From: Candidatus Bathyarchaeota archaeon
GTDB taxonomy: Archaea > Thermoproteota > Bathyarchaeia > Bathyarchaeales > Bathycorpusculaceae
Length of the DNA stretch: 64,000 nt
Assembly (NCBI GenBank): GCA_963720565.1
Contig: CAVRFW010000005.1
Span: 160,001 to 224,000, forward strand
Direction: 5' to 3'
Shown: in pieces, positions 29,823-51,219 of the stretch
Layout: every line of letters starts with the position of its first letter
Position numbering within the stretch: position 1 is the stretch's first letter
The notes under the pieces: model-generated
Told to the model about the DNA's origin: nothing
Seen by the model: the letters and a program-made list of their open reading frames with translations, nothing else
Databases searched by the model: none
Position numbers and translations under genes: made by a program

Positions 29823-29838
29823 CCGAAACGCTTTTATC
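29823..29838 (+). promoter_or_regulatory. BRE/TATA promoter of the aro leader and operon
   Basis: CCGAAACG-CTTTTATC, 37 nt upstream of the leader ATG; 13/16 identical to the ilv leader promoter. Confidence 0.65.
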
Positions 29839-29875
29839 AGCGAAATAACGTCTTTTGAGCAAGGTTCGAAGCTAC

Positions 29876-29959
29876 ATGCTAAATCGTGAAAGTCAAAAGC
29901 AGAGTCATCATCGAATGTTTTCTAGCTTCGGATACTACTTTTATTATTATTTTTGCTGA
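29876..29959 (+). CDS. Putative Phe/Tyr leader peptide (27 aa; alternative ATG at 29915 gives 14 aa)
   Basis: MLNRESQKQSHHRMFSSFGYYFYYYFC*: 5 Tyr and 4 Phe in the last 13 codons, directly upstream of the aromatic pathway operon. Confidence 0.8.
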   Translation: MLNRESQKQSHHRMFSSFGYYFYYYFC

Positions 29960-29998
29960 GCCCAGAACCAAAAAAATTTCATGTTAAGGTTTCTGGGC
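29960..29998 (+). promoter_or_regulatory. Stem-loop immediately after the aro leader stop codon
   Basis: GCCCAGAACC / GGTTTCTGGGC, 10 bp with one bulge. Confidence 0.7.
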
Positions 29999-30018
29999 GC
30001 AAGGATAGTTGATAATTA

Positions 30019-31251
30019 ATGGAAAACAAAAAAATTGTGGTCAAGTTCGGGGGTTCATCTCTAGCCGATCATGAACGCTTACTGAAAGCTGTAACTGCGG
30101 TGGTTAATGAATCGCAGAAAGGTACGCAGATCGCTGTTGTCGTGTCGGCTATGGGCAAGACAACCGACACCCTGCTCAGCACTGCAAGAAACACAAGCAA
30201 TGGGAAACTCCAAAAACAAGAACTGGACGATATTCTGAGTATGGGTGAACGGACAAGCGTTCGCATTTTCGCCGCTGCATTGCGAAATAACGGCGCGGAC
30301 AGCTGCTACTTTGATCCAATGGATGAAAATTGGCCAATAATAACTGACGCAGCATTCTCCAACGCTAACCCGTTGTTAATGGAATGTAAGCGTAGAATTC
30401 GGGAAAACGTTTTGCCAGTCGTTGAGAAAGGCATTATTCCTGTGATAGCTGGTTTCGTCGGCAAGACTCAGGAAGGAAAGATTACCACGCTTGGCAGAGG
30501 TGGAAGCGACACAACTGCATTCATTATAGCAGAAGCACTTCACGCCGACGAAGTTGTCCTGGTGACAGATGCTGACGGAATAATGTCTGGTGACCCAAAA
30601 ATCATCACAGGGGCGAAACGTCTTGAGGCGATAGATGTGAGCACTCTTGTGGGTCTGGCTGATTCTGGGGCAAAGTTCGTCCACATTAAAGCCCTCAAAC
30701 ACAAACCTCCAGCCATAAATGTACGGGTAATCAACAGTCAACATGGGAACCTGTCGGAGCAAGGCACAATAATAACAGGCGGATTGTCCACTGAACTTGA
30801 CGTAAGCATGGCTTATTCCTCGCAAGTGGCCGAGATAACAGTTGTCGGCAACAACATTTCCGAAAACCCCCAGATTGTTCAGGAAATGATGGAGAAAACC
30901 AAGAAGCACAACGCGTTGTTAGGCCTGTCCATGAACCAGAACAGCATTATACTCTACCTCGCGGAAGTAGAAGCCACAAACCAACTCGTCAACGACATTC
31001 ATCAAACAGTACTTAAAAACAAGGAGAATATAGCAATGGCAGTTAAGAAGAACCTCGCCTACTTCCGAATCAGCGGAGTCGGATTAGAAGAAACACATGG
31101 CATAATAGGAAAAATTAGCGAAACCTTACGCCTCAACAACATAAACATTTCCGGAATACTCACAATTACATCCAGCATACTCATATTCGTAGATTGGAGC
31201 GAAAAAGAGAAAGTGCTTAACCTCATCAGAAACGCGCTCAAAACCCACTAA
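30019..31251 (+). CDS. lysC: Aspartate kinase
   Basis: VVKFGGSS, VVVSAMGKTTD, SMGER, TLGRGGSDTTA, C-terminal ACT domains. Confidence 0.95.
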   Translation: MENKKIVVKFGGSSLADHERLLKAVTAVVNESQKGTQIAVVVSAMGKTTDTLLSTARNTSNGKLQKQELDDILSMGERTSVRIFAAALRNNGADSCYFDPMDENWPIITDAAFSNANPLLMECKRRIRENVLPVVEKGIIPVIAGFVGKTQEGKITTLGRGGSDTTAFIIAEALHADEVVLVTDADGIMSGDPKIITGAKRLEAIDVSTLVGLADSGAKFVHIKALKHKPPAINVRVINSQHGNLSEQGTIITGGLSTELDVSMAYSSQVAEITVVGNNISENPQIVQEMMEKTKKHNALLGLSMNQNSIILYLAEVEATNQLVNDIHQTVLKNKENIAMAVKKNLAYFRISGVGLEETHGIIGKISETLRLNNINISGILTITSSILIFVDWSEKEKVLNLIRNALKTH

Positions 31252-31259
31252 CAACGGAG

Positions 31260-32060
31260 ATGAAAAGAATGAACCAAGGAAAAACAAGAAGAATGAAACG
31301 CATAATGAACGAGGATCACTGCACGGTCATCGTTCCAATGGACCACGGGGTCACAATAGGACCCGTAAAAGGCATCGAAAACATGCAAACCATAGTCCAA
31401 CAACTTGTCAACGGCGGAGCCGACGCCATACTAGTCCACAAAGGCATCGCCAAACACGTCGACACAAAAGACTCAGGATTAATAGTTCAACTCTCTGCCT
31501 CCTCAAACTTGAGTTCAAATCCCAACACCAAAGTTCAAGTCTGCACCGTCAGAGAAGCCATCCGCCTGGGCGCAGATGCTGTGTCAGTACACATCAATGT
31601 TGGGGCGCAAGACGAAGACAAAATGCTTCAAACACTGGGTAAAGTTGCTAACGAATGTGACATCTACGGTATTCCACTCTTGGCAATGATGTATCCAAGA
31701 GGGCCGAAAATACAAGACGAACATGCCGTTGACGTGGTGGCGCATGCCGCTAGAATAGGTGCAGAACTTGGTGCAGACATTATCAAAGCAAACTACACAG
31801 GAAACATGGAAACATTCAGAAAGGTTGTCGAAAGCTGCCCAGTTCCAGTGGTTATTGCAGGCGGCCCCAAATCCAAGACAGCAAAAGAAATCCTGCAAAC
31901 GGCACACGAATCGCACAAGGCTGGAAGTGCTGGACTCTCGATTGGACGAAACGTGTTCCAACATGAAAACCCAACCCTGATGGTTAAAGCCCTCTGCGCT
32001 ATTGTTCATAGAGATGCTTCTGTTGAACAAGCTTTGAGAATCCTCGGTGAAAGCCATTGA
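31260..32060 (+). CDS. 2-amino-3,7-dideoxy-D-threo-hept-6-ulosonate (ADH) synthase, AroA'
   Basis: Class I aldolase: [28 protein letters not shown]; adjacent to DHQ synthase II. Confidence 0.92.
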
Positions 32061-33097
32061 AGGAACTCTGGCTTGAAATAGCTACAGGCGCCTCTCTTCC
32101 AGAAAAAGCAAGCCTCCTTAAACTTGCCTCTCAAAACTGCGACTTCATAATAGAAAACGAGACAGCGATTAGTCAACAAGGCAAAAGCAACATTACAATT
32201 CTAAAGGACTTAGACACCGCTGGAATCACCAAGCTGATGCGAGACGGAAAACAGTTTGCTCTTAGAATAACCATAGGCGGAAAAGAAGACGAGAACACAG
32301 CAGTCAAAGCAGCCGAACTACGAACAGACTACATCATAATCAACTGCCTTGATTGGCGTGTAATTCCCTTGGAAAACATAATTGCCCGAACACGCGGCAA
32401 AAGCAGACTAATCTCAGAAGCGACAAATGCGGAAGAAGCCAAACTCGTCTTGGAAACGCTGGAGTTAGGAACAGAAGGTGTCCTGCTTAAGACGTCCGAC
32501 CCTGAAGAGCTTACGAAAACTATCGCTACCGTCAAGAAGCAAAACCTCCAAGTTGAAATGACACCCGCCAAAATAACCACAATTAGGCAAATCAGCACTG
32601 GCGCACGAGTCTGCGTCGACACATGCGACATGATGGCACCTGGCGAAGGAATTTTGGTTGGTTGCCAATCAGCGGGTTTCTTTCTCGTAGAGGCAGAAGT
32701 GCACGAAAACCCCTACGTACAATCGCGGCCTTTCAGAGTCAATGCTGGCTCTCTATCCATGTATACTCTGGGACCTCAACAACAAACTCGTTATCTTTCA
32801 GAGCTGAAATCCGGTGACGAAGTCCTCATAGTCAACAGAAAAGGAGTTTTGAGGACAGCTAATGTCGGAAGAGCAAAAATCGAAATGAGGCCTCTAATTC
32901 TAATAGAAGCGGACGCTCAAGGTACAATGATAAAAACTATCCTACAAAACGCAGAAACCATTCGCTTGGTGACACCTGACAGTTCAAAGCCAGTGACAGA
33001 ATTGAAAGAAAGTGATGAAGTAATGGTGCACGTAGCTGCAAAAGGCGGCAGGCACTTCGGTATAGCTGTACCAGACGAAACGGTGATTGAAAGGTGA
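32057..33097 (+). CDS. 3-dehydroquinate synthase II, AroB'
   Basis: DWRVIPLEN, RVCVDT, RPFRVNAG, GRAKIEMRPL, LQNAETI, RHFG. Confidence 0.95.
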   Translation: MKELWLEIATGASLPEKASLLKLASQNCDFIIENETAISQQGKSNITILKDLDTAGITKLMRDGKQFALRITIGGKEDENTAVKAAELRTDYIIINCLDWRVIPLENIIARTRGKSRLISEATNAEEAKLVLETLELGTEGVLLKTSDPEELTKTIATVKKQNLQVEMTPAKITTIRQISTGARVCVDTCDMMAPGEGILVGCQSAGFFLVEAEVHENPYVQSRPFRVNAGSLSMYTLGPQQQTRYLSELKSGDEVLIVNRKGVLRTANVGRAKIEMRPLILIEADAQGTMIKTILQNAETIRLVTPDSSKPVTELKESDEVMVHVAAKGGRHFGIAVPDETVIER

Positions 33098-33780
33098 CAG
33101 CTAGAATAGCTGTTTCGATTCTACCCAAAACTATGCAAGAAGCACTGCAACTGATTGAAAAAGCAGAAAACGCACACGCTGACTTGATTGAAGTCAGACT
33201 TGACTGTCTAGGGAATCACATTGAACTTGCTGACTTGGCCGCTCACGGCAAAACACCGAAAATAGCCACAAACAGGATGACCAGCGTGCACGGAGTCTTG
33301 CCTGTGTCTGAGGCCGAACAGAGGAAAATGTTGCTTAATGCTGCTAAGAGCGGGTTTGAATTCGTGGATATAGACTTGTCTGGCACAAAGGTTAGAGAAC
33401 TGGTTAGCGAAGTAAAAGCGAGAGGAGCCAAATCCATAGTGTCCTTTCACGATTTCTCCGGCACCCCAAGCCTTTCAGAGTTGAAAAGAATCTTTCAAAA
33501 GGAAATTAACAGCAGAGCTGACGTTTGCAAAATCGTAACCACTGCAAAGCGTATGGAGGACAATTTGACAGTTCTGGATTTCACATCAAGTGCCTCTGCC
33601 TCGGGCAAGTCAAAAATAGTGTGTTTCGCCATGGACGAGTTGGGTAAGGTTTCTAGATTGTTGTCACCCTTGTTCGGCGGTTTCTTCACCTTTGCTTCGC
33701 TCGAGCACGGTAGCGAAACAGCTTCTGGACAGATGAGCATTCAAGAAATGAGAGCAGGTTACGAATTGTTGGGGCTATAG
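33094..33780 (+). CDS. aroD: Type I 3-dehydroquinate dehydratase
   Basis: IEVRLD, IATNR, VSFHDF, KIV, SRLL, TASGQ. Confidence 0.92.
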   Translation: MTARIAVSILPKTMQEALQLIEKAENAHADLIEVRLDCLGNHIELADLAAHGKTPKIATNRMTSVHGVLPVSEAEQRKMLLNAAKSGFEFVDIDLSGTKVRELVSEVKARGAKSIVSFHDFSGTPSLSELKRIFQKEINSRADVCKIVTTAKRMEDNLTVLDFTSSASASGKSKIVCFAMDELGKVSRLLSPLFGGFFTFASLEHGSETASGQMSIQEMRAGYELLGL

Positions 33781-33784
33781 TGAA

Positions 33785-34654
33785 ATGTCAATTTCAGGAA
33801 AAACAAGAGTGTGTGGGGTAATTGGCGACCCGATATCCCACACTCTAAGCCCGATAATCCATAATGCGGCTTTCAGCCACCTGAAACTCGATTTCGTCTA
33901 TTTAGCTTTCGATGTAAAACCATCTGAATTAGAAAATGCCCTGCATGGCATCAAGGGCTTACGTATTCACGGGTTGAATGTTACGATGCCGCATAAGAAA
34001 GCAGTCCTTCGCTTCTTAGATGAAGTCGATCAGACTGCGAAGTTTTTGGGTGTGGTCAACACAATCCTCAACAAGAAAGGGCGACTTTGCGGCTTCAACA
34101 CCGACGGCTTTGGTGCCTTGCGGGCTCTCAAAGAAAACAGCTTTGATTTATCAGGAAAAAAAGCGCTTCTGCTCGGAGCAGGTGGTGCAGCAAAAGCCAT
34201 AGCGTTGTCTCTTGCTGAAGAGGTTGAGGAGCTCACTCTCCTAAACAGGACCTTAGAAAAAGTAAGGGACCTGGAGGAGAAGTTGAATCAGCACTTTGGC
34301 GAGAGAGTCAGATCAGACACCCTTTCGCCAGGAAATGTCAAGAAGTATCTTCGAGCTTCAGATATTCTCGTCAATGCAACATCCGTAGGTATGTATCCCA
34401 ATCTTAGCCAAAGCATAGTGCCCCCGGAAATCTTAAGGCCTGATTTAGTCGTAATGGACATAGTCTACAATCCCGTTGAAACAGAACTTGTCGAAAACGC
34501 CAGAGCTGCAGGAGCTAGGGTAATCACTGGAGTGGAGATGCTCATTCATCAAGGTGCAGCATCTTTTGAAATCTGGACAGGTTGCCCAGCGCCAGTGGAT
34601 GTCATGCGAAAAGCAGCCCTATGCAAACTCACAAGTTTAGGTGAGAACAGATGA
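33785..34654 (+). CDS. aroE: Shikimate dehydrogenase
   Basis: GDPISHTLSP, NVTMPHK, NTDG, GAGGAA, NATSVGM, DIVYNP. Confidence 0.96.
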   Translation: MSISGKTRVCGVIGDPISHTLSPIIHNAAFSHLKLDFVYLAFDVKPSELENALHGIKGLRIHGLNVTMPHKKAVLRFLDEVDQTAKFLGVVNTILNKKGRLCGFNTDGFGALRALKENSFDLSGKKALLLGAGGAAKAIALSLAEEVEELTLLNRTLEKVRDLEEKLNQHFGERVRSDTLSPGNVKKYLRASDILVNATSVGMYPNLSQSIVPPEILRPDLVVMDIVYNPVETELVENARAAGARVITGVEMLIHQGAASFEIWTGCPAPVDVMRKAALCKLTSLGENR

Positions 34655-35520
34655 CTGGAAAAGCTGAGGCAATATCTCACGGTGCAGCAACTATCGTAAA
34701 TGCGATTGCTCTGGGGAAAGGCGCGGCTTTTGGGGTCGACCTTTGGACAAGGGCTGAAGTTAGATTAACCGAGGAGCCGCACATAATCACGGGAGAGATA
34801 ACTGAAGATCCTGGCGAAAGTACGACACTAATTGAAAGAACAGTAATGCGCGTTATAAGTCATTTCGGTCTGGAAAACCTTTTTGGAGCCAAGGTCAAAA
34901 CTCGATCCAACATACCCATTGCTAGAGGCTTGAAGAGCAGCAGTTCAGCAGCAAATGCCGTAGCCTTAGCGACTGTTGCAGCTTTGGGTAAAACGCTGGA
35001 TGACCTTGCTATAGTGAATCTGGGAGTGGATGCTGCTTTTGAAGCAAAAGTCACTGTTACAGGAGCTTTTGACGACGCTTGTGCTTCCTATTTCGGTGGC
35101 GCTGTTGTAACTGACAATCTGAAAAGAAAAATTGTTAAAAGCTCAACTATTCGCGATGATTTAACGGTTCTGTTTCATGTTCCATCCAGAAAAGCGTACA
35201 CAGGTAATTCTGACGTTGGCAGGCTGCAGACTGTTAAACCGCTCGTCAAGATAGCCTACAATGAAGCAAAGAACGGAAATTTCTGGGAGGCACTAACGCT
35301 TAATGGATTAATCTATTCAGCTACCTTGGGATATGACACTTCAGTAGCGTTAGATGCTCTAGCAGCTGGAGCATTGGCTGCCGGACTAAGCGGAAAAGGT
35401 CCTGCGATCACAGTCGTGGTTACCGAGGATAAAATTGATTCTGTCAGGGCAGCTCTGCAATGTCATGAAGGCGAAGTACTGAATACCCGATTGAACCGCG
35501 AGAAGGCGAAGGTACTCTAA
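34651..35520 (+). CDS. aroK: Archaeal (GHMP) shikimate kinase
   Basis: IPIARGLKSSS, TGAFDDACAS, GLSGKGP. Confidence 0.93.
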   Translation: MTGKAEAISHGAATIVNAIALGKGAAFGVDLWTRAEVRLTEEPHIITGEITEDPGESTTLIERTVMRVISHFGLENLFGAKVKTRSNIPIARGLKSSSSAANAVALATVAALGKTLDDLAIVNLGVDAAFEAKVTVTGAFDDACASYFGGAVVTDNLKRKIVKSSTIRDDLTVLFHVPSRKAYTGNSDVGRLQTVKPLVKIAYNEAKNGNFWEALTLNGLIYSATLGYDTSVALDALAAGALAAGLSGKGPAITVVVTEDKIDSVRAALQCHEGEVLNTRLNREKAKVL

Positions 35521-35522
35521 CT

Positions 35523-36827
35523 ATGACGGAGATTGTGGTTAGAAAGACCTGTAGTCTAGAAGGCGAAGTACGGGCGCCGTCGTCTAAGGCTTATACTCAG
35601 AGGATGCTAATAGCGACTGCATTGTCCAGAGGAACTTCGAAAATTCTGCAACCGTTAATTTCCGACGATATTCAAGCTACTCTTCGGGCAGTGGAGGGTT
35701 TAGGAGCTAAAGTGACTCGGTCAAAGGACTGCTGGAAGGTCAAGGGTTCACAACCAGTTGGAAACGCAACAAATCCTATTGACTGCGGCGAGTCCGGAGC
35801 AACACTGCGGTTTATGATTCCTGTAGCAGCGTTAGCAGCCAAACCTTCGGTGTTCACTTTTAAGCCCTCTCTGGCAAAGAGGCCCATAGAGCCACTGTTT
35901 GAAAGCCTTAAACAATTGGGGGCTGAAGTTCATTTTCAAAGCAAAGCCAACAAAGAATCCATTGTTGTCCAAGGAGGCGGAATCTTGGGAGGAAAAACCA
36001 CTGTCCCCGGCGACATAAGTTCTCAGTTTATATCAGGATTAATGTTCGCTTGTCCAATGGCCTGGAAAGAAACTGAAATCACACTCAGTACGCCGCTTGA
36101 GTCTCGAGGCTACGTCAAAATGACCGAATCGGTCCTCGGCCAACATGGAATCAAAGTATCAATATCCGATAATTTTGGACACTTTAGCATACCGCCAAAT
36201 CAAACCTATAAAACCTGTGACCACATTGTGCCCGGAGACTTTTCTTCAGCAGCATTTCTCTTGGCAGCTGCTTCCATAATCCCTTCAAAAATACAAGTGA
36301 ATAATCTTGACTATGCGATAATTCAGGGAGACAAGGTAATTCTGGAGATCCTCAAGAAGATGGGCATAAAGGTCAATGTCTGTTCTGATAGCGTTGCCAT
36401 AGAGGAAACGGATGGATTGCTTGAAGCCTTTGAAGTTGACGCGACAGATATTCCTGACCTTGTTCCAGTCCTTGTTGTCCTAGCATGTTATGCGAAAGGC
36501 ACCTCTAGAATTAGCGGTGCGCGTAGACTGCAATATAAGGAGTCCAACAGATTGTTATCGCTTTATCTTGAGTTGAAAAAGATGGGTGCTGAAATAGAGA
36601 TGAACGAAAGCAGCTTAACAGTTAAAGGAAGTTGCTCGCTACATGGTGCGGTGATTGATCCTCATAATGATCACCGTATTGCTATGGCATGCGCAATTGC
36701 CGCCTTGGGCGCTAGTGGAGAAACGATGATTCAGAATGCTGAGTGCGTGAGAAAGTCTTATCCGAGGTTCTTTACTGATTTACAGGCATTGGGGGCTGAT
36801 GTCGTTGGGTGGAAACTCGATAGGTAA
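35523..36827 (+). CDS. aroA: EPSP synthase
   Basis: PSSK, CGESGATLRF, ISSQFISG, KESNR, DHRIAM, KSYPRF. Confidence 0.96.
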   Translation: MTEIVVRKTCSLEGEVRAPSSKAYTQRMLIATALSRGTSKILQPLISDDIQATLRAVEGLGAKVTRSKDCWKVKGSQPVGNATNPIDCGESGATLRFMIPVAALAAKPSVFTFKPSLAKRPIEPLFESLKQLGAEVHFQSKANKESIVVQGGGILGGKTTVPGDISSQFISGLMFACPMAWKETEITLSTPLESRGYVKMTESVLGQHGIKVSISDNFGHFSIPPNQTYKTCDHIVPGDFSSAAFLLAAASIIPSKIQVNNLDYAIIQGDKVILEILKKMGIKVNVCSDSVAIEETDGLLEAFEVDATDIPDLVPVLVVLACYAKGTSRISGARRLQYKESNRLLSLYLELKKMGAEIEMNESSLTVKGSCSLHGAVIDPHNDHRIAMACAIAALGASGETMIQNAECVRKSYPRFFTDLQALGADVVGWKLDR

Positions 36828-37911
36828 AGAATTCACAGTTACTTCTTTCGGCGAGAGCCACGGCAAATGCGTAGGAGTCGTCGTGGACGGTTGCCCAGCT
36901 GGGCTTTCTCTTTCGGAAAAGGATGTGCAAATCGAACTAGATAGAAGAATCCCGCTCGATTCCAAAATCGTTTCAGGAAGGATTGAGAAAGATACGGCGA
37001 CAATTCTCTCAGGTGTTTTCAACGGTTTGACCACTGGGGCACCAATCAGCATTGTGGTCGAGAACAAGGAAGCTCATCCCAGCGACTACGAAGGTATCAA
37101 AGATTTGCCCAGACCGGCACATGCTGACTACACTGCCGGTGTAAAGTACGGTCGGTTTAATGATTATCGTGGTGGGGGGCGCTTTTCAGGCAGGGTTACC
37201 GTTGCACTGATTATGGCTGGCGCCATTGCAAAGAAACTGTTACGCACGGTTAATGTCGATGTTTTAGCTTACACGAAAGCAGTAGGCAAGCTGAAAATGG
37301 GTGAAAGCCCAAACTTCGAGGAGATTCGTAAACACAAGTACGATACAGCGGTCCGATGTCCTAACTTAGCATATGCCGAAAAGATGGAAAAAGCAATAAT
37401 TCAAGCAAAAAAAGAAGGTGACAGTCTAGGCGGAATAATCGAGTGCATCGCGGAAAATGTTCCAGCAGGAGTTGGCGATCCACTGTTTGATTCTTTAGAT
37501 GCTGACATTGCCAAAATGTTGTTTTGTGTTCCAGCTGTCAAAGGTGTTGAGTTCGGAGCAGGATTTAAGGCTGCAGAGTTGAAGGGTTCGGAAAATAACG
37601 ACGCTTTCCAGCTACAGGGCGGTAGGGTGACCACTTTATCAAATAACGCGGGAGGTATTCTAGGTGGCATATCCTCCGGGATGCCCCTCATTGTCAGGGT
37701 AGCCGTCAAACCCACACCATCTATTAGCAAAGAGCAAAAAACCGTCAATCTGCAAAACATGAAAAACACCACGGTAACAGTGGAGGGTAGACATGATCCC
37801 TGCGTTGTTCCAAAAGCAGTACCTGTTGTAGAAGCTGCTGTTGCAGTTGTTCTCGCAGACCACATGATTCGTGCGGGTTTCATATCCAAGATTTTAGACG
37901 GGCGGAAATAA
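36799..37911 (+). CDS. aroC: Chorismate synthase
   Basis: FGESHG, PRPAHAD, GGGRFSGR, KPTPSI, RHDPC; the true start may be a few codons downstream. Confidence 0.96.
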   Translation: MSLGGNSIGKEFTVTSFGESHGKCVGVVVDGCPAGLSLSEKDVQIELDRRIPLDSKIVSGRIEKDTATILSGVFNGLTTGAPISIVVENKEAHPSDYEGIKDLPRPAHADYTAGVKYGRFNDYRGGGRFSGRVTVALIMAGAIAKKLLRTVNVDVLAYTKAVGKLKMGESPNFEEIRKHKYDTAVRCPNLAYAEKMEKAIIQAKKEGDSLGGIIECIAENVPAGVGDPLFDSLDADIAKMLFCVPAVKGVEFGAGFKAAELKGSENNDAFQLQGGRVTTLSNNAGGILGGISSGMPLIVRVAVKPTPSISKEQKTVNLQNMKNTTVTVEGRHDPCVVPKAVPVVEAAVAVVLADHMIRAGFISKILDGRK

Positions 37912-38169
37912 ATGGAAGACATAGCGAAATTGAGAAAAAGAATCGACAAAGTAGACGAGCAAATCTTGCATTCCTTGAGCGATAGAATAAAGATCTGTAG
38001 GTCAATTGGTTTGTTGAAGAAGAAACAGGGCTTATCTATTAAGGATCAGCAGAGAGAAACCGATCTTTGCGAGAAGATTAAGAAAAGGGCGGTTGAACTA
38101 AATCTAGACCCAGCGAGGGTAGAGGAAATATATCGGCAGATAGTTGAAATGTGCATTTCTGTTCAATGA
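37912..38169 (+). CDS. Chorismate mutase (AroQ type)
   Basis: LRKRIDKVD...R...IG..K......D..RE pattern. Confidence 0.9.
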   Translation: MEDIAKLRKRIDKVDEQILHSLSDRIKICRSIGLLKKKQGLSIKDQQRETDLCEKIKKRAVELNLDPARVEEIYRQIVEMCISVQ

Positions 38170-38182
38170 CCGGAATGGATGA

Positions 38183-39265
38183 TTGACAAGCATGCTGTAT
38201 GAAATAAACGAAAAAGCTCTCAAACTTGAGAGCGAAGGAAAAAAGATAATTCGGTTGAACATAGGCGACCCTGACCTGTCAACTTCGAACGAGATAATTG
38301 AGGCTGCTTACGAAGCGATGAAGAAAGGAAAAACCAAGTATTCTTCCAGTTACGGCGAGACGAAACTAAGGGAAAAACTTGCTGAAATTCATCATGTTTC
38401 ACCTGATCAGGTTGTGATTACTCCAGGCTCGAAATGGGGCGTTTTCGCTACCATGTATCTAGCGTTGCGGGACGGCGGAAACGTCATCGTTCCCACGCCT
38501 TACTGGACAGCATACGAGTTGACAGCTAAGAGTTTAGGTGCCAAGACTAAACTGTTGAGGACCGAGTTTGATTCCCAATGGCAAATTGACTTGGAAAAGC
38601 TTGAGGATTTGATTGACGGGGAAACGCGGATGATAATTTTGAATAACCCCAACAATCCAACCAGCAAAGTCATGGCCCCCGAAATTTTGGATGGAATAGT
38701 CCAAATTGCCAACGACAAAGGTATCCCGATTCTTTCGGACGAAGTCTACGGCACCATAAGTTTTGTGAAGACTAAAAGCATTCTTGATTACGAAGGCAAC
38801 CACATTCTTTCAAACGGGTTCTCCAAGACGTTCACAATGACGGGTTGGCGACTCGGCTATATCATAGCCAGCAAAGAACTGGTCGACAAAATAACTAGAC
38901 TTAATCAAATCACAATTAGCAATGTTCCTGTCTTTATCCAAGAAGCAGGCTTGAAAGCTTTAGAGCTTCAGAAGCAAATCTCAACGAAAATCAGGGAAGA
39001 ATACCGGGAACGCGCGAAAATTGCGAGCAACATCATGTCTAAGACTGCTCTGGAATTTACAGAGCCCGAGGCTCCGTTCTATGTCTTCCCGAGAAAACGT
39101 GGTTTAGACTCAGAAAGATTCGTCTTGGACTTGTTAGATAAAGGTGTTGCAGTCGCCCCGGGTACGTCGTTTGGCGATTACAGAGAGCACTTCCGCATTT
39201 CTTTAACCGCACCGCGAGAAATGATTAAAACAGGTTTGAACAGGATCTGCGAGGCCCTGGAATGA
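38183..39265 (+). CDS. Class I/II PLP aminotransferase (probably aromatic)
   Basis: NNPNNPT, SDEVY, FSKTFTMTGWRLG; located within the aro operon. Confidence 0.9.
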   Translation: MTSMLYEINEKALKLESEGKKIIRLNIGDPDLSTSNEIIEAAYEAMKKGKTKYSSSYGETKLREKLAEIHHVSPDQVVITPGSKWGVFATMYLALRDGGNVIVPTPYWTAYELTAKSLGAKTKLLRTEFDSQWQIDLEKLEDLIDGETRMIILNNPNNPTSKVMAPEILDGIVQIANDKGIPILSDEVYGTISFVKTKSILDYEGNHILSNGFSKTFTMTGWRLGYIIASKELVDKITRLNQITISNVPVFIQEAGLKALELQKQISTKIREEYRERAKIASNIMSKTALEFTEPEAPFYVFPRKRGLDSERFVLDLLDKGVAVAPGTSFGDYREHFRISLTAPREMIKTGLNRICEALE

Positions 39266-40135
39266 AAATTGCGATTCTAGGCGCGGGGAAAATGGGTGTT
39301 TGGTTCGCCAGGTTCTTCCAAGAAGAAGGATATTCCGTGGTTTTGGCAGATAGAAACGAAAAAAAACTGGAGAGGTTGAAGGAGGAACTTGCTGTCCAAA
39401 CCGCCGGCTTTGTTGAAGCTGTTCAAAAAGCCGACTGGATTTTAATCTGCGTGTCCATGAACGCTTTTGAGAACTGTTGCCAAAACAATCGGCCCCCACA
39501 TAGTAAAGGGGCAAATTGTCATGGATATTTGCTCCGTCAAAGAAGAACCCGTTAAAATCATGCACAAACACATCGAAAAAGGCTTGGTTTTGGGGACTCA
39601 CCCTGTATTTGGTCCGGGCAGCAGCGGCGTCAAAAACAAGGCTTTCATTCTTACTCCAACAACAAGGCAAGAGGAAGAATTTGCCAAAGACTTCAAAATC
39701 TGGCTGGAAGCAAAAAAAGCACGTGTTTTCGTAGTCACTCCTCACAAGCATGACGAATTGATGTCGGTTGTTCTCGGTTTTCCACATTTCGCAGGATTAG
39801 TTGCGTGCGACACTCTGCTCGAAATGAAAGATTACCCTCAAACTAAGGATGTCGCTGGCACCACTTATCGAATGTTGTTCACTTTGGCGGAAGCGACTGC
39901 AATGGAAAACCCCGAGCTGTTTTCAAGTTTACAGTTTAGTCTTCCAGAGATGGAGAAGATAGAAAAATTGTTCATTGAAAAGGCGAACGAATGGTTAAAC
40001 CTGATAAAGCAGAAAGATTCTGGGGCAATTGCAGCCAAGATGAACGATTTGAAGTCAAAGCTTGCTAGAGCAAGTCCCAGCTACGAAAAGTCGTACGAGA
40101 CTATGTATAAGATGCTGGCGGCAGCTGAAAAATAG
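39262..40135 (+). CDS. tyrA: Prephenate dehydrogenase, frameshifted at about 39472
   Basis: GAGKMG Rossmann motif; DICSVK, HPVFGP, HDELMS after an apparent extra A. Confidence 0.9.
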
Positions 40136-40144
40136 CTGTTCAGA

Positions 40145-40999
40145 TTAAGCGTTTGGCGCCTTTGGATATGAACCCAAGATTTTGAGAAATGCCCCGTTCT
40201 TTTGAAGCGCTTTCAATGCTGCAGCACAGTTTTCTTCTGTTCTATGTCCTTCAAAATCCAAGTAGAAATTGTATTCCCACGCTTTCTGCTTCGTCGGTCT
40301 AGATTCGATTTTTGTGAGGTTTATGTTTCGCTTCGCAAATTCGCTCAAGGCTTGATATAGCGAACCCGGAGTGTGGGCAGCAGCAAAGATTATCGATGTC
40401 TTGTCTTTTCCTGTAATCGGAGAGTCTTCTTTTGACAATACAAAGAACCTAGTATGGTTTGTCGGGTTATCCTCAATTTCCCTGGATAGGATCTGCATTC
40501 CGTATATTTCAGCAGCTTTTGCACTGGCTACTGCTGCAGCGTTCCTTAGACCTTTCTCTTTTAACATTTTTACGCTGCCTGCAGTGTCGTAAGTCGGTAC
40601 AAGTTCGCTTCCTAGTCGCTCCAGAAAAATGCGGCATTGAGCCAAAGCTTGCGGGTGCGAATAGACCGTTTTTATGTCGGCTAATGTTACGCCGGGGTTT
40701 GCGATGAGGCAGTGGCTGACTCGGAGGATGATTTCTCCGCAGACTTTAAGGTCGTGTGTAAGGAAAAGGTCGTAGGTTTGATTGACGCTGCCTTCGAGGC
40801 TGTTCTCTATTGGAACTACGCCGAAGCGGGTTTCTTGTTTGCCAACGTTTTCAAAGACTTCTGTAAGATCTCGGCACGGTTTAACTTCTACCTTTTTTCC
40901 GAAAAAGGCGTAGACTGCGCTCTCGCTGAAAGCGCCTCTTTCTCCTTGGAAGGCCACTTTCACTTTTTGTTTCCCTGCTTTCGGTTTTTTATTAAGCAT
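40145..40999 (-). CDS. pheA: Prephenate dehydratase
   Basis: GAFS, PIENSLEG, SHPQALAQC, TRF, NLTKIESRP, LGSYP. Confidence 0.96.
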   Translation of the reverse strand: MLNKKPKAGKQKVKVAFQGERGAFSESAVYAFFGKKVEVKPCRDLTEVFENVGKQETRFGVVPIENSLEGSVNQTYDLFLTHDLKVCGEIILRVSHCLIANPGVTLADIKTVYSHPQALAQCRIFLERLGSELVPTYDTAGSVKMLKEKGLRNAAAVASAKAAEIYGMQILSREIEDNPTNHTRFFVLSKEDSPITGKDKTSIIFAAAHTPGSLYQALSEFAKRNINLTKIESRPTKQKAWEYNFYLDFEGHRTEENCAAALKALQKNGAFLKILGSYPKAPNA

Positions 41000-49647: not shown

Positions 49648-51219
49648 TTGGAAGTGAACATCGTAAGTGATGAAAAATGGGGTATTGCTTTATCTAATCG
49701 CTTCCCTGAGAAGATAAGAATTTTTGACACCACCCTAAGAGATGGGGAACAGACCCCTGGAGTATCTTTAACACCTGAAAATAAACTGCGGATAGCGCAG
49801 CGTCTAGACGAGCTTGGTGTGGATGTTATCGAGGCTGGTTTTGCAGCTGTTTCTGATGGTGAGATGGAAGGAGTAGCGCTGATTGCCAGGCAGGGTTTGA
49901 AGGCGGAGATTTGTAGTGCTGCAAGAGGCGTGAAAGGCGACATTGATGCCGTGGTCAGGAGTGGCGCTGATAGTGTCCATTTGATTATACCTACTTCTGA
50001 TCTTCATATTGAGTGCAAGCTAAAGAAGACGCGGGATCAAGTACTGCAGATTACTGAAGACTGCGTAAGGTATGCTAAAGACCAAGGGTTGATCGTGGAG
50101 CTTTCAGCTGAAGACGCTACAAGGTCTGAGAGGGATTTTCTGAAGAGTGTCTTTAGAACAGGAATTGCTGCTGGAGCTGACCGAGTAGTCGCGTGCGATA
50201 CTGTCGGCGTTTTGACGCCTGAAAAATCATATGCGCTTTTCGCTGACTTGCGAAAGTCGCTTAAGGTTCCCGTGGTAAGCGTTCACTGTCATAACGATTT
50301 CGGTATGGCAGTGGCGAACTCGATCGCTGCTATAAGGGGCGGTGCGAACCAGTTTCACGCTACGATTAACGGTTTAGGCGAAAGGGCTGGAAACGCCTCT
50401 TTGGAAGAGATTGTGATCGGGCTGAAGTCGTTATACAAGCTTGATCTTAACGTAAAGACAGACTTGCTTTACAGCACATCACAGCTTGTGTCGCGGCTAA
50501 CTGGGGTTTACCTGCAACCTAACAAGGCGATAGTGGGCGAAAACGCTTTCACCCATGAGTCTGGGATTCACACGCAAGGTTTGTTGGCTAATCCTTTGAC
50601 TTACGAGTCTATTTCGCCAGAATTAGTTGGTGGTACAAGACGAATTTCAGCGGGAAAACACTCTGGAACGCATGGAATACGTGATGCACTCGAGAAGTTT
50701 GGTTTGAATCCGACAGATAAACAGTTTAAAGAGATCTTCCTCAGAGTGAAAAGCGTGGGAGACAAAGGCAAAACAGTTATGGATGCAGATGTGCTGGCGA
50801 TTGCAGAAAGCGTTATGGGCTTAAGCAAGGAAAAACCGATACAGCTGCAGGAGCTCACAGTCGTCGCTGGAGACAAAGTCACGTCCACAGCTTCAGTGCG
50901 ACTTAAGCTTAATGAGAAGGAAGTTTGGGGCGCAGCTATAGGGGTGGGTCCGGTAGACGCTGCCATAAACGCTGTGAAAAAAGCCATCCAAGAAGTGCAG
51001 CCGATTCATTTGGAGCAGTACAACGTCAAGGCGATTACAGGGGGAACTGACGCCATGGTTGAAGTTGTGGTGCGCATGAGGAAAGGCGGCAGAACAGCGA
51101 CTGCGATGGGTGTTCGTGAGGACATTGTGATGGCAAGCATGGATGCAGTGCTCAGCGCCATGAACGTGTTATCCACAGACTATAACGGCGTAAACAACAA
51201 ACCAGCAAAACAGCGTTAA
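49648..51219 (+). CDS. Second LeuA/CimA-family enzyme, probably (R)-citramalate synthase
   Basis: DTTLRDGEQTPG, HCHNDFG, HESGIH; divergent from ilvD; substrate cannot be fixed from motifs alone. Confidence 0.8.
   Translation: MEVNIVSDEKWGIALSNRFPEKIRIFDTTLRDGEQTPGVSLTPENKLRIAQRLDELGVDVIEAGFAAVSDGEMEGVALIARQGLKAEICSAARGVKGDIDAVVRSGADSVHLIIPTSDLHIECKLKKTRDQVLQITEDCVRYAKDQGLIVELSAEDATRSERDFLKSVFRTGIAAGADRVVACDTVGVLTPEKSYALFADLRKSLKVPVVSVHCHNDFGMAVANSIAAIRGGANQFHATINGLGERAGNASLEEIVIGLKSLYKLDLNVKTDLLYSTSQLVSRLTGVYLQPNKAIVGENAFTHESGIHTQGLLANPLTYESISPELVGGTRRISAGKHSGTHGIRDALEKFGLNPTDKQFKEIFLRVKSVGDKGKTVMDADVLAIAESVMGLSKEKPIQLQELTVVAGDKVTSTASVRLKLNEKEVWGAAIGVGPVDAAINAVKKAIQEVQPIHLEQYNVKAITGGTDAMVEVVVRMRKGGRTATAMGVREDIVMASMDAVLSAMNVLSTDYNGVNNKPAKQR

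Follow-up and report, generated by a model that had tools for sequence, protein, structure and literature searches.

Background

The enterobacterial pheL-pheA, trpL, hisL and thrL systems are leader-peptide transcription attenuators. With ermC it is the pairing of the downstream Shine-Dalgarno (SD) sequence that is decided by stalling on the leader, the signal being an antibiotic, while E. coli prfB uses a +1 programmed frameshift, set by an SD-like word, a slippery codon and a slow codon, with its product in the +1 frame. As to archaea, the trp operon of Methanothermobacter with its regulator TrpY is a DNA-binding repressor system, for which sensing of charged tRNA via one codon has reportedly been suggested.

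Ribosome-mediated attenuation has so far been described in bacteria. The accessible sections of PMC2965389 report leader systems from bacterial phyla as of 2010, and ermC-type translational attenuation is named there. For the mycobacterial polycysteine short-ORF attenuators (Ms5788A), the accessible text of 10.1101/834739 describes that stalling at the poly-Cys run frees the SD of the next gene. As for archaea, the available portions of the reviews on coupling treat attenuation as bacteria-only or do not mention it (PMC8116511, PMC8576121, PMC13681488), the string "attenuat" being absent from the available text of PMC8116511; those of a review on archaeal recoding cover read-through and -1 shifts only (PMC8211752); and those of two archaeal Ribo-seq studies assign no mechanism to the uORFs found (PMC11456600, PMC10117724). 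Altogether no precedent for an archaeal amino-acid leader peptide was found in the accessible parts of the open literature. Herein we describe a leader at the head of an aromatic operon which would apparently be the first case in Archaea of ribosome-mediated attenuation, and one without a bacterial terminator.

The leader and its operon

All coordinates are positions in the window, namely the whole stretch of 64,000 nt of contig CAVRFW010000005.1 that was analysed, unless another contig is named. The leader and the genes that follow it are these:

29876..29959, forward strand: leader ORF of 27 codons, MLNRESQKQSHHRMFSSFGYYFYYYFC*, from translation and conservation
29918..29953, forward strand: Phe/Tyr codon tract, with 9 of 12 codons aromatic, seven of them consecutive at 29933-29953
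30019..31251, forward strand: aspartate kinase, the aromatic-operon paralogue, from NCBIfam and orthologue search
31260..37911, forward strand: ADH synthase, DHQ synthase II, aroD, aroE, archaeal aroK, aroA and aroC, from NCBIfam
37912..40135, forward strand: chorismate mutase, PLP aminotransferase and prephenate dehydrogenase, from NCBIfam, the dehydrogenase in two frames

Retranslation and codon counts confirm what an earlier note on this DNA had pointed out, namely a Phe/Tyr leader ORF with seven consecutive aromatic codons upstream of an aromatic operon. Nine Phe/Tyr codons stand among its last 13, and both synonyms of either amino acid are used, as had been claimed, in this leader (TAC twice, TAT three times, TTC once, TTT three times) as well as across 91 orthologous leaders; from the leader stop to the kinase start there are 59 nt. 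Such a composition is rare in the genome, where about 85,000 stop-ending stretches of 14 codons, taken in six frames, contain only two with 9 F/Y/W codons, one of which is this leader. Base shuffles of its last 14 codons, scored by the best of three frames, give p=0.002. Ranked by bias towards any one class of amino acids, it comes second among 4141 short intergenic ORFs; unlike the ORF in first place, it has a TATA-like box, 44 nt before the ATG. The same scan, which is blind to leaders of a one-codon type, brought out no other amino-acid operon with a codon-run leader among the best 45 of the 4141 ORFs. The leader peptide matched 0 families of NCBIfam, and the leader region gave four weak matches in Rfam, all well under the gathering score.

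Downstream, NCBIfam matches extend from aspartate kinase to prephenate dehydrogenase, so the operon does reach chorismate mutase/TyrA as previously proposed; the kinase presumably supplies aspartate semialdehyde for ADH synthase. The archaeal type of these enzymes, together with an FttA homologue, marks the host as an archaeon. The prephenate dehydrogenase gene (39262-40135, forward strand) is split between two frames with a break near 39475-39480, by assembly error or as a pseudogene. Prephenate dehydratase (PheA; 40145-40999, reverse strand) lies outside the operon and ends a convergent ilvB-ilvN-leuCDBA cluster. No trpE family match, and no trpA match over the cut-off, was found in this 89%-complete genome, and the leader had been supposed to have no Trp codon because trp genes are absent. 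That explanation is not supported among the relatives, since Trp codon and trpA are not significantly correlated: Trp codons occur in 22/71 leaders from genomes with trpA vs 3/20 from those without (Fisher p=0.26). In most relatives the trp genes form a separate operon with its own one-codon Trp leader (14/20 examined), and it is because of this second device that most run-type leaders need no Trp codon. ARAGORN lists tRNA-Phe and tRNA-Trp in the genome and does not list tRNA-Tyr, which is probably an intron or assembly matter.

Conservation of the reading frame

The kinase was searched in 61 relatives and in 401 genomes belonging to the class; 163 of these 401 carry the orthologue. We sampled 126 orthologous loci: 21 from the search in relatives, 25 from the class-wide search and 80 hand-picked for spread. 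With L015 and L105 left out as having no upstream DNA, 124 loci remain, and a run-type Phe/Tyr leader is present at 92 of them, a different aromatic-codon leader at the other 32. One run-type leader (L016) has its start cut off, leaving 91 complete ones. Related genomes are non-independent, and the counts given here describe spread, not significance.

The run-type leaders are 19-42 codons long and start with ATG in 85 of the 91. When the leader frame is picked as the richest in F/Y/W, its last 14 codons hold 8.1 such codons on average vs 1.2 and 1.9 in the other frames, and 88/91 leaders surpass base shuffles at p<0.05, the shuffle control likewise taking the best of three frames. An ATG 58-96 nt before the stop, a window set by the stop alone, is found in frame in 85/91 vs 8 and 11 out of frame; this stop-anchored count is used instead of a TATA-anchored one (81/86), which we dropped as circular. 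The two out-of-frame readings are interrupted by stops in 31/91 and 80/91 leaders. Pooled over the 91 leaders, TAT is used 275 times, TAC 89, TTT 175 and TTC 174. In the tails Leu, Ile and Val are scarce (20, 5 and 9, vs Tyr 364 and Phe 349), and the order of Phe and Tyr varies freely. The pattern by which the earlier note would have abandoned the leader, T-richness kept with the Tyr/Phe frame lost, is not what the 91 leaders present: frame and aromatic identity are both kept amid synonymous variation. As to which ATG is used, a check that the same note had proposed, 29876 is the conserved start, and ATG 29915 was rejected as main start, its equivalent being present in just 6/41 aligned core leaders.

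Because F/Y/W codons and ATGs are in excess in frame, together with synonymous codon variation, the frame is under selection. Paralogous aspartate kinases (35-40% identity, different context) have no such leader in 9/9 cases (L022-L030). Elsewhere in the phylum, 18 loci of other classes were judged by eye: an aromatic-rich leader is present at 12, absent at 3 and unresolved at 3. The locus has what one expects of an attenuator, namely a short ORF with cognate codons ahead of the operon, whose frame, start and aromatic tail are kept as the N-terminal half of the peptide drifts freely among orthologues. The leader is a genuine, conserved cis-element.

Promoter and RNA structures

Around the ORF the following signals are seen:

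29824..29839, forward strand: archaeal promoter, BRE-like CGAAA and TATA-like TTTTATCA, from sequence
29864..29874, forward strand: 5' strand of predicted helix P1, which pairs with 29923-29933 (Ser-Phe codons) and closes over the leader's own start
29960..29998, forward strand: predicted hairpin P2, which begins with the base that directly follows the leader stop (-15.4 kcal/mol, z -2.1)
30002..30013, forward strand: SD-like site of the aspartate kinase, from its duplex with the 3' end of the 16S rRNA of this genome

By the usual promoter spacing we take transcription to start at about 29861-29863, and the predicted 5' UTR of the leader is 13-15 nt. A TATA-like box lies 30-58 nt before the leader start in 86/91, a count that is partly circular as the start was chosen with the box in view, and a scan of the locus for sigma-70 promoters and bacterial terminators gave no match. 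Of the contigs from four public RNA runs, one of 151 nt spans 29899-30051; the contigs are patchy, come mostly from relatives and, as they carry no ends, strand or level, were left aside.

The earlier note overlooked the 5'-end helix as well as the hairpin that follows the stop and abuts the SD. In P1 seven consensus pairs recur in 40-42 of the 42 core loci; changes occur on one side only, none on both, and folding of the whole leader is significant in just 19/91. P2 has z<-2 in 82/91 orthologues and changes completely in sequence between families. It starts at -2..+1 relative to the stop in 72/91, and its end lies 0-8 nt upstream of the SD in 88/91, counts that are constrained, the folded segment being bounded by stop and SD. 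By eye, the stretch from stop to SD forms hardly any hairpin, or none, in L224, L225, L228 and L229, which are among the leaders outside the class. P1 and P2 are mutually compatible, and alternative pairings of their arms are weak and unspecific. [quoted passage not shown] No U-tail follows P2 here, at least 5 T in the following 8 nt occur in 3/91, and an intrinsic terminator of the pheL/trpL type, namely a hairpin with a U run, is absent from the locus. The ORF, the promoter, the codon tract, the hairpin and the SD are conserved in order and spacing.

How the leader may act

Judging from sequence, the leader is very probably a ribosome-stalling gauge of charged tRNA-Phe and tRNA-Tyr, and the best indirect evidence that ribosomes here read the Phe/Tyr supply comes from the swapping of two unrelated aromatic-codon devices at one locus, as described below. 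For its output we regard it as about an even call that control is translational, with the kinase SD exposed by the stalled ribosome. The short 5' UTR and P1 would meter the loading of ribosomes. In fed cells, ribosomes would run through the leader and leave, the hairpin after the stop would block re-initiation, and the U-rich tract would be drawn onto the G/A-rich SD, so that the kinase is poorly translated; alternatively, a ribosome on the stop may melt the 5' arm of the hairpin, and the freed 3' arm would then pair with the SD. In starved cells, a ribosome stalled on the last Tyr or Phe codons would cover the tract, leaving the hairpin intact and the SD free. If the kinase gene stays untranslated, FttA polarity would reach the genes behind it, and the whole operon may follow in this way. 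Aromatic codons occupy positions -5 to -2 in 69-86 of the 91 leaders and position -1 in just 25/91, because of which the stalled ribosome would be kept off the hairpin stem. Structure shortly past a stop codon lowers coupling, according to the accessible text of PMC12548453.

With the ribosome footprint treated as unpaired, the predicted openness of the SD at this locus is 0.11 with no ribosome, 0.72 for a stall at Tyr 29945, 0.67 at Phe 29951 and 0.35 with a ribosome on the stop; a stall on the first aromatic codons opens it little (0.26 at 29936). Over 87 loci, that is, the 91 minus L014, L041, L052 and L118, where the SD was mis-picked, the predicted cost of opening the SD is 4.6 kcal/mol when free, 1.6 when stalled and 4.1 in the stop state. 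However, shuffled tracts mask the SD equally (5.5 vs 4.6 kcal/mol for the real ones, with real above shuffled in 26/87), and so do shuffled 3' segments (4.7 vs 4.1 kcal/mol, real above shuffled in 34/87). A sequence-specific pairing of tract or hairpin arm with the SD, being no better than shuffles, was rejected. In the model the masking is compositional, right in sign but as an evolved trait unsupported by the shuffled controls. When the initiation window is widened, the saving averaged over aromatic stalls exceeds 1 kcal/mol in just 45/91.

Another output of the same gauge, which we regard as rather unlikely, is transcription termination dependent on FttA/aCPSF1, for which a homologue gene is present in the genome. 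Either the stalled ribosome would hide U4 tracts within the codon run, as the earlier note had it, or the hairpin would keep a U-rich signal hidden as long as no terminating ribosome melts the stem. By the accessible part of PMC8716108, aCPSF1 does without a hairpin and needs a pair of U4 tracts within at least 18 nt, which is enough for binding. Two U4 tracts indeed lie in this leader, within 29940-29955, at least one U4 occurs between stop and SD in 63/91, and Tyr codons are biased to TAT (TAT:TAC 275:89 in leaders vs 192:239 in kinase genes). For the shielded U-tract terminator, the part that stands is that pairs of U4 (at least two in the last 10 codons) are found in 37/91 where about 22 are expected; the part that does not is a general U-tract, as 19/91 leaders have no U4 in their last 10 codons and T runs of at least 6 are found in 0/91 where about 18 are expected. 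Moreover, an early-stalled ribosome would leave the later U4 exposed, which has the wrong sign, and termination has no need for a hairpin that ends at the SD.

Sister leaders with one cognate codon

The 32 kinase loci with the different leader belong to families f26, f35 and f39 and have neither run nor hairpin. In each of their short leaders an SD-like word is followed, after a single spacer codon, by an NTT codon; a Phe or Tyr codon comes next, at a fixed site, and the leader frame stops 5-17 codons past it. The +1 frame leads into the kinase at 28 loci, ends at the kinase start at 3 (L069, L090, L095) and fails at one (L133); among the 31 script-matched loci, ATG is absent from that frame in 13, GTG starts being possible. 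Tandem Phe, Tyr (and Tyr-Trp) cassettes are seen in these three families only (L068-L091, L095, L109, L110, L122-L124, L133, L134, L136), and the kinases there are extended at the N-terminus by a variable stretch that lies in the +1 frame. Similar leaders precede other amino-acid genes of the genome:

47719-47790, reverse strand: ilvB leader, MRDRHLNSWDRRVLILQITQGTF*, with the +1 frame open for 49 codons and stopping at the ilvB SD
49677-49697, forward strand: leader of a leuA/cimA-type gene, MGYCFI*, six codons, with Ile after TTT
G000:C9:204347, forward strand: hisG leader, MRDCVH..., with His at position 6 after GTT

In relatives, the ilvB leaders have the six-codon head with a cognate codon at position 6 at 18/18 loci (Leu 17, Ile 1). 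The +1 frame of the MGYCFI* leader is the 2-isopropylmalate/citramalate synthase-family gene itself, ending at 51219, and that of the hisG leader runs for 18 codons and stops about 120 nt short of hisG. The trpE leaders of relatives (L169-L186) show Trp at position 6 after NTT with the +1 frame fused to TrpE in 14/20 regions. The ilvB leader looks like a starvation-gated +1 frameshift, and by their sequences the leaders at the 32 loci, at the leuA/cimA-type gene and at hisG look like starvation-triggered +1 frameshifts too. A head MRDHHK... at G000:C3:31672 (reverse strand), upstream of a phosphoglycerate-dehydrogenase-like gene (named by eye), has Lys and not Ser as codon 6 and is possibly there by chance. 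L231, L235 and L236 are, by eye, hybrids with a frameshift-type head, extra aromatic codons and a +1 frame reaching near the kinase start.

We lean slightly towards a joint reading, in which a ribosome-read regulon is built from two interchangeable devices, one being the codon run with a stop-anchored hairpin and the other the one-codon +1 frameshift, swapped at one locus with hybrids between them, and in which these would constitute the first archaeal amino-acid attenuation. As part of this reading, the frameshift regulon would comprise ilvB for Leu, the leuA/cimA-type gene for Ile, hisG for His, trpE for Trp and the kinase of the other families for Phe/Tyr. If true, this is a frameshift switch gated by a sense codon, for which we found no described counterpart. 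The sister leaders also imply that trpE and kinase starts are mis-called in many genomes.

One may then ask whether starvation makes ribosomes slip +1 in the Phe/Tyr run as well, bypassing the stop, melting the hairpin and coupling to the kinase. Frameshift-like leaders at 32 orthologous loci and at three other amino-acid genes of the genome, the hybrids with both features and an NTT codon before an aromatic codon in 63/91 run-type leaders would suit such a slip, yet we consider it improbable. In 34/91 the +1 frame has its end at -20..+30 from the kinase start, vs 30 and 39 for the other frames, and read-through of the 29876-type run, being not above them, was rejected; the +1 frame of the 29876 leader itself stops 31 nt before the kinase start, and a conserved internal SD-like word before the run is absent by eye. 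An output at the level of mRNA stability, where the stalled ribosome and the hairpin would shield the 5' end from ribonucleases, could be argued from the helices at both leader ends, but it leaves the abutment on the SD unexplained and seems to us quite improbable. Least of all do we expect that there is no gauge and that a small hydrophobic peptide is the product, with the hairpin as an insulator or as terminator of the upstream gene: although the tail is hydrophobic and archaeal uORFs of no known role are common according to the accessible parts of PMC10117724 and PMC11456600, the order of Phe and Tyr is free, the tails contain little Leu, Ile or Val, no NCBIfam family is matched, another aromatic-codon device replaces the leader at 32 loci, the hairpin lies within the operon's own transcript downstream of the operon TATA box, and an rpiA match is found at just two among the loci listed.

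Comparison with known systems

Taken as a gauge of charged tRNA-Phe and tRNA-Tyr, the leader illustrates how amino-acid synthesis may be tuned with no repressor in an uncultured lineage abundant in sediments, and its 160-nt cassette is a ready reporter for archaeal stalling, SD-led initiation, re-initiation and FttA polarity. The TrpY system, in contrast, has a repressor and neither leader peptide nor hairpin. The sister leaders resemble prfB in having an SD-like word and, a few bases on, a slippery codon and a slow one, with the protein in the +1 frame; but where the slow codon of prfB is a stop, theirs encodes the pathway product. With ermC the run-type leader would share the logic at the SD, its signal being amino-acid supply instead of an antibiotic.

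As in pheL-pheA, trpL, hisL and thrL, a short leader with codons for the end product heads a biosynthetic operon and is followed by RNA structure (for the principle, see the accessible text of 10.1101/834739). The hairpin-plus-U-tail terminator of pheL/trpL is however absent, there is no evident anti-terminator, the hairpin ends at the SD, and promoter and polymerase are archaeal. The Ms5788A poly-Cys leaders, as far as the accessible text describes them, share with it a 3'-terminal cognate run in a short first ORF, a predicted pairing of the run with the SD and the lack of an intrinsic terminator. The archaeal leader differs from them in its host, in being bivalent for Phe and Tyr, in its UTR of 13-15 nt where the poly-Cys ones are leaderless, in the intervening hairpin fixed at the stop, and in a predicted tract-SD pairing no better than shuffles. 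By analogy of layout, it is to these poly-Cys translational attenuators that the Phe/Tyr leader is closest.
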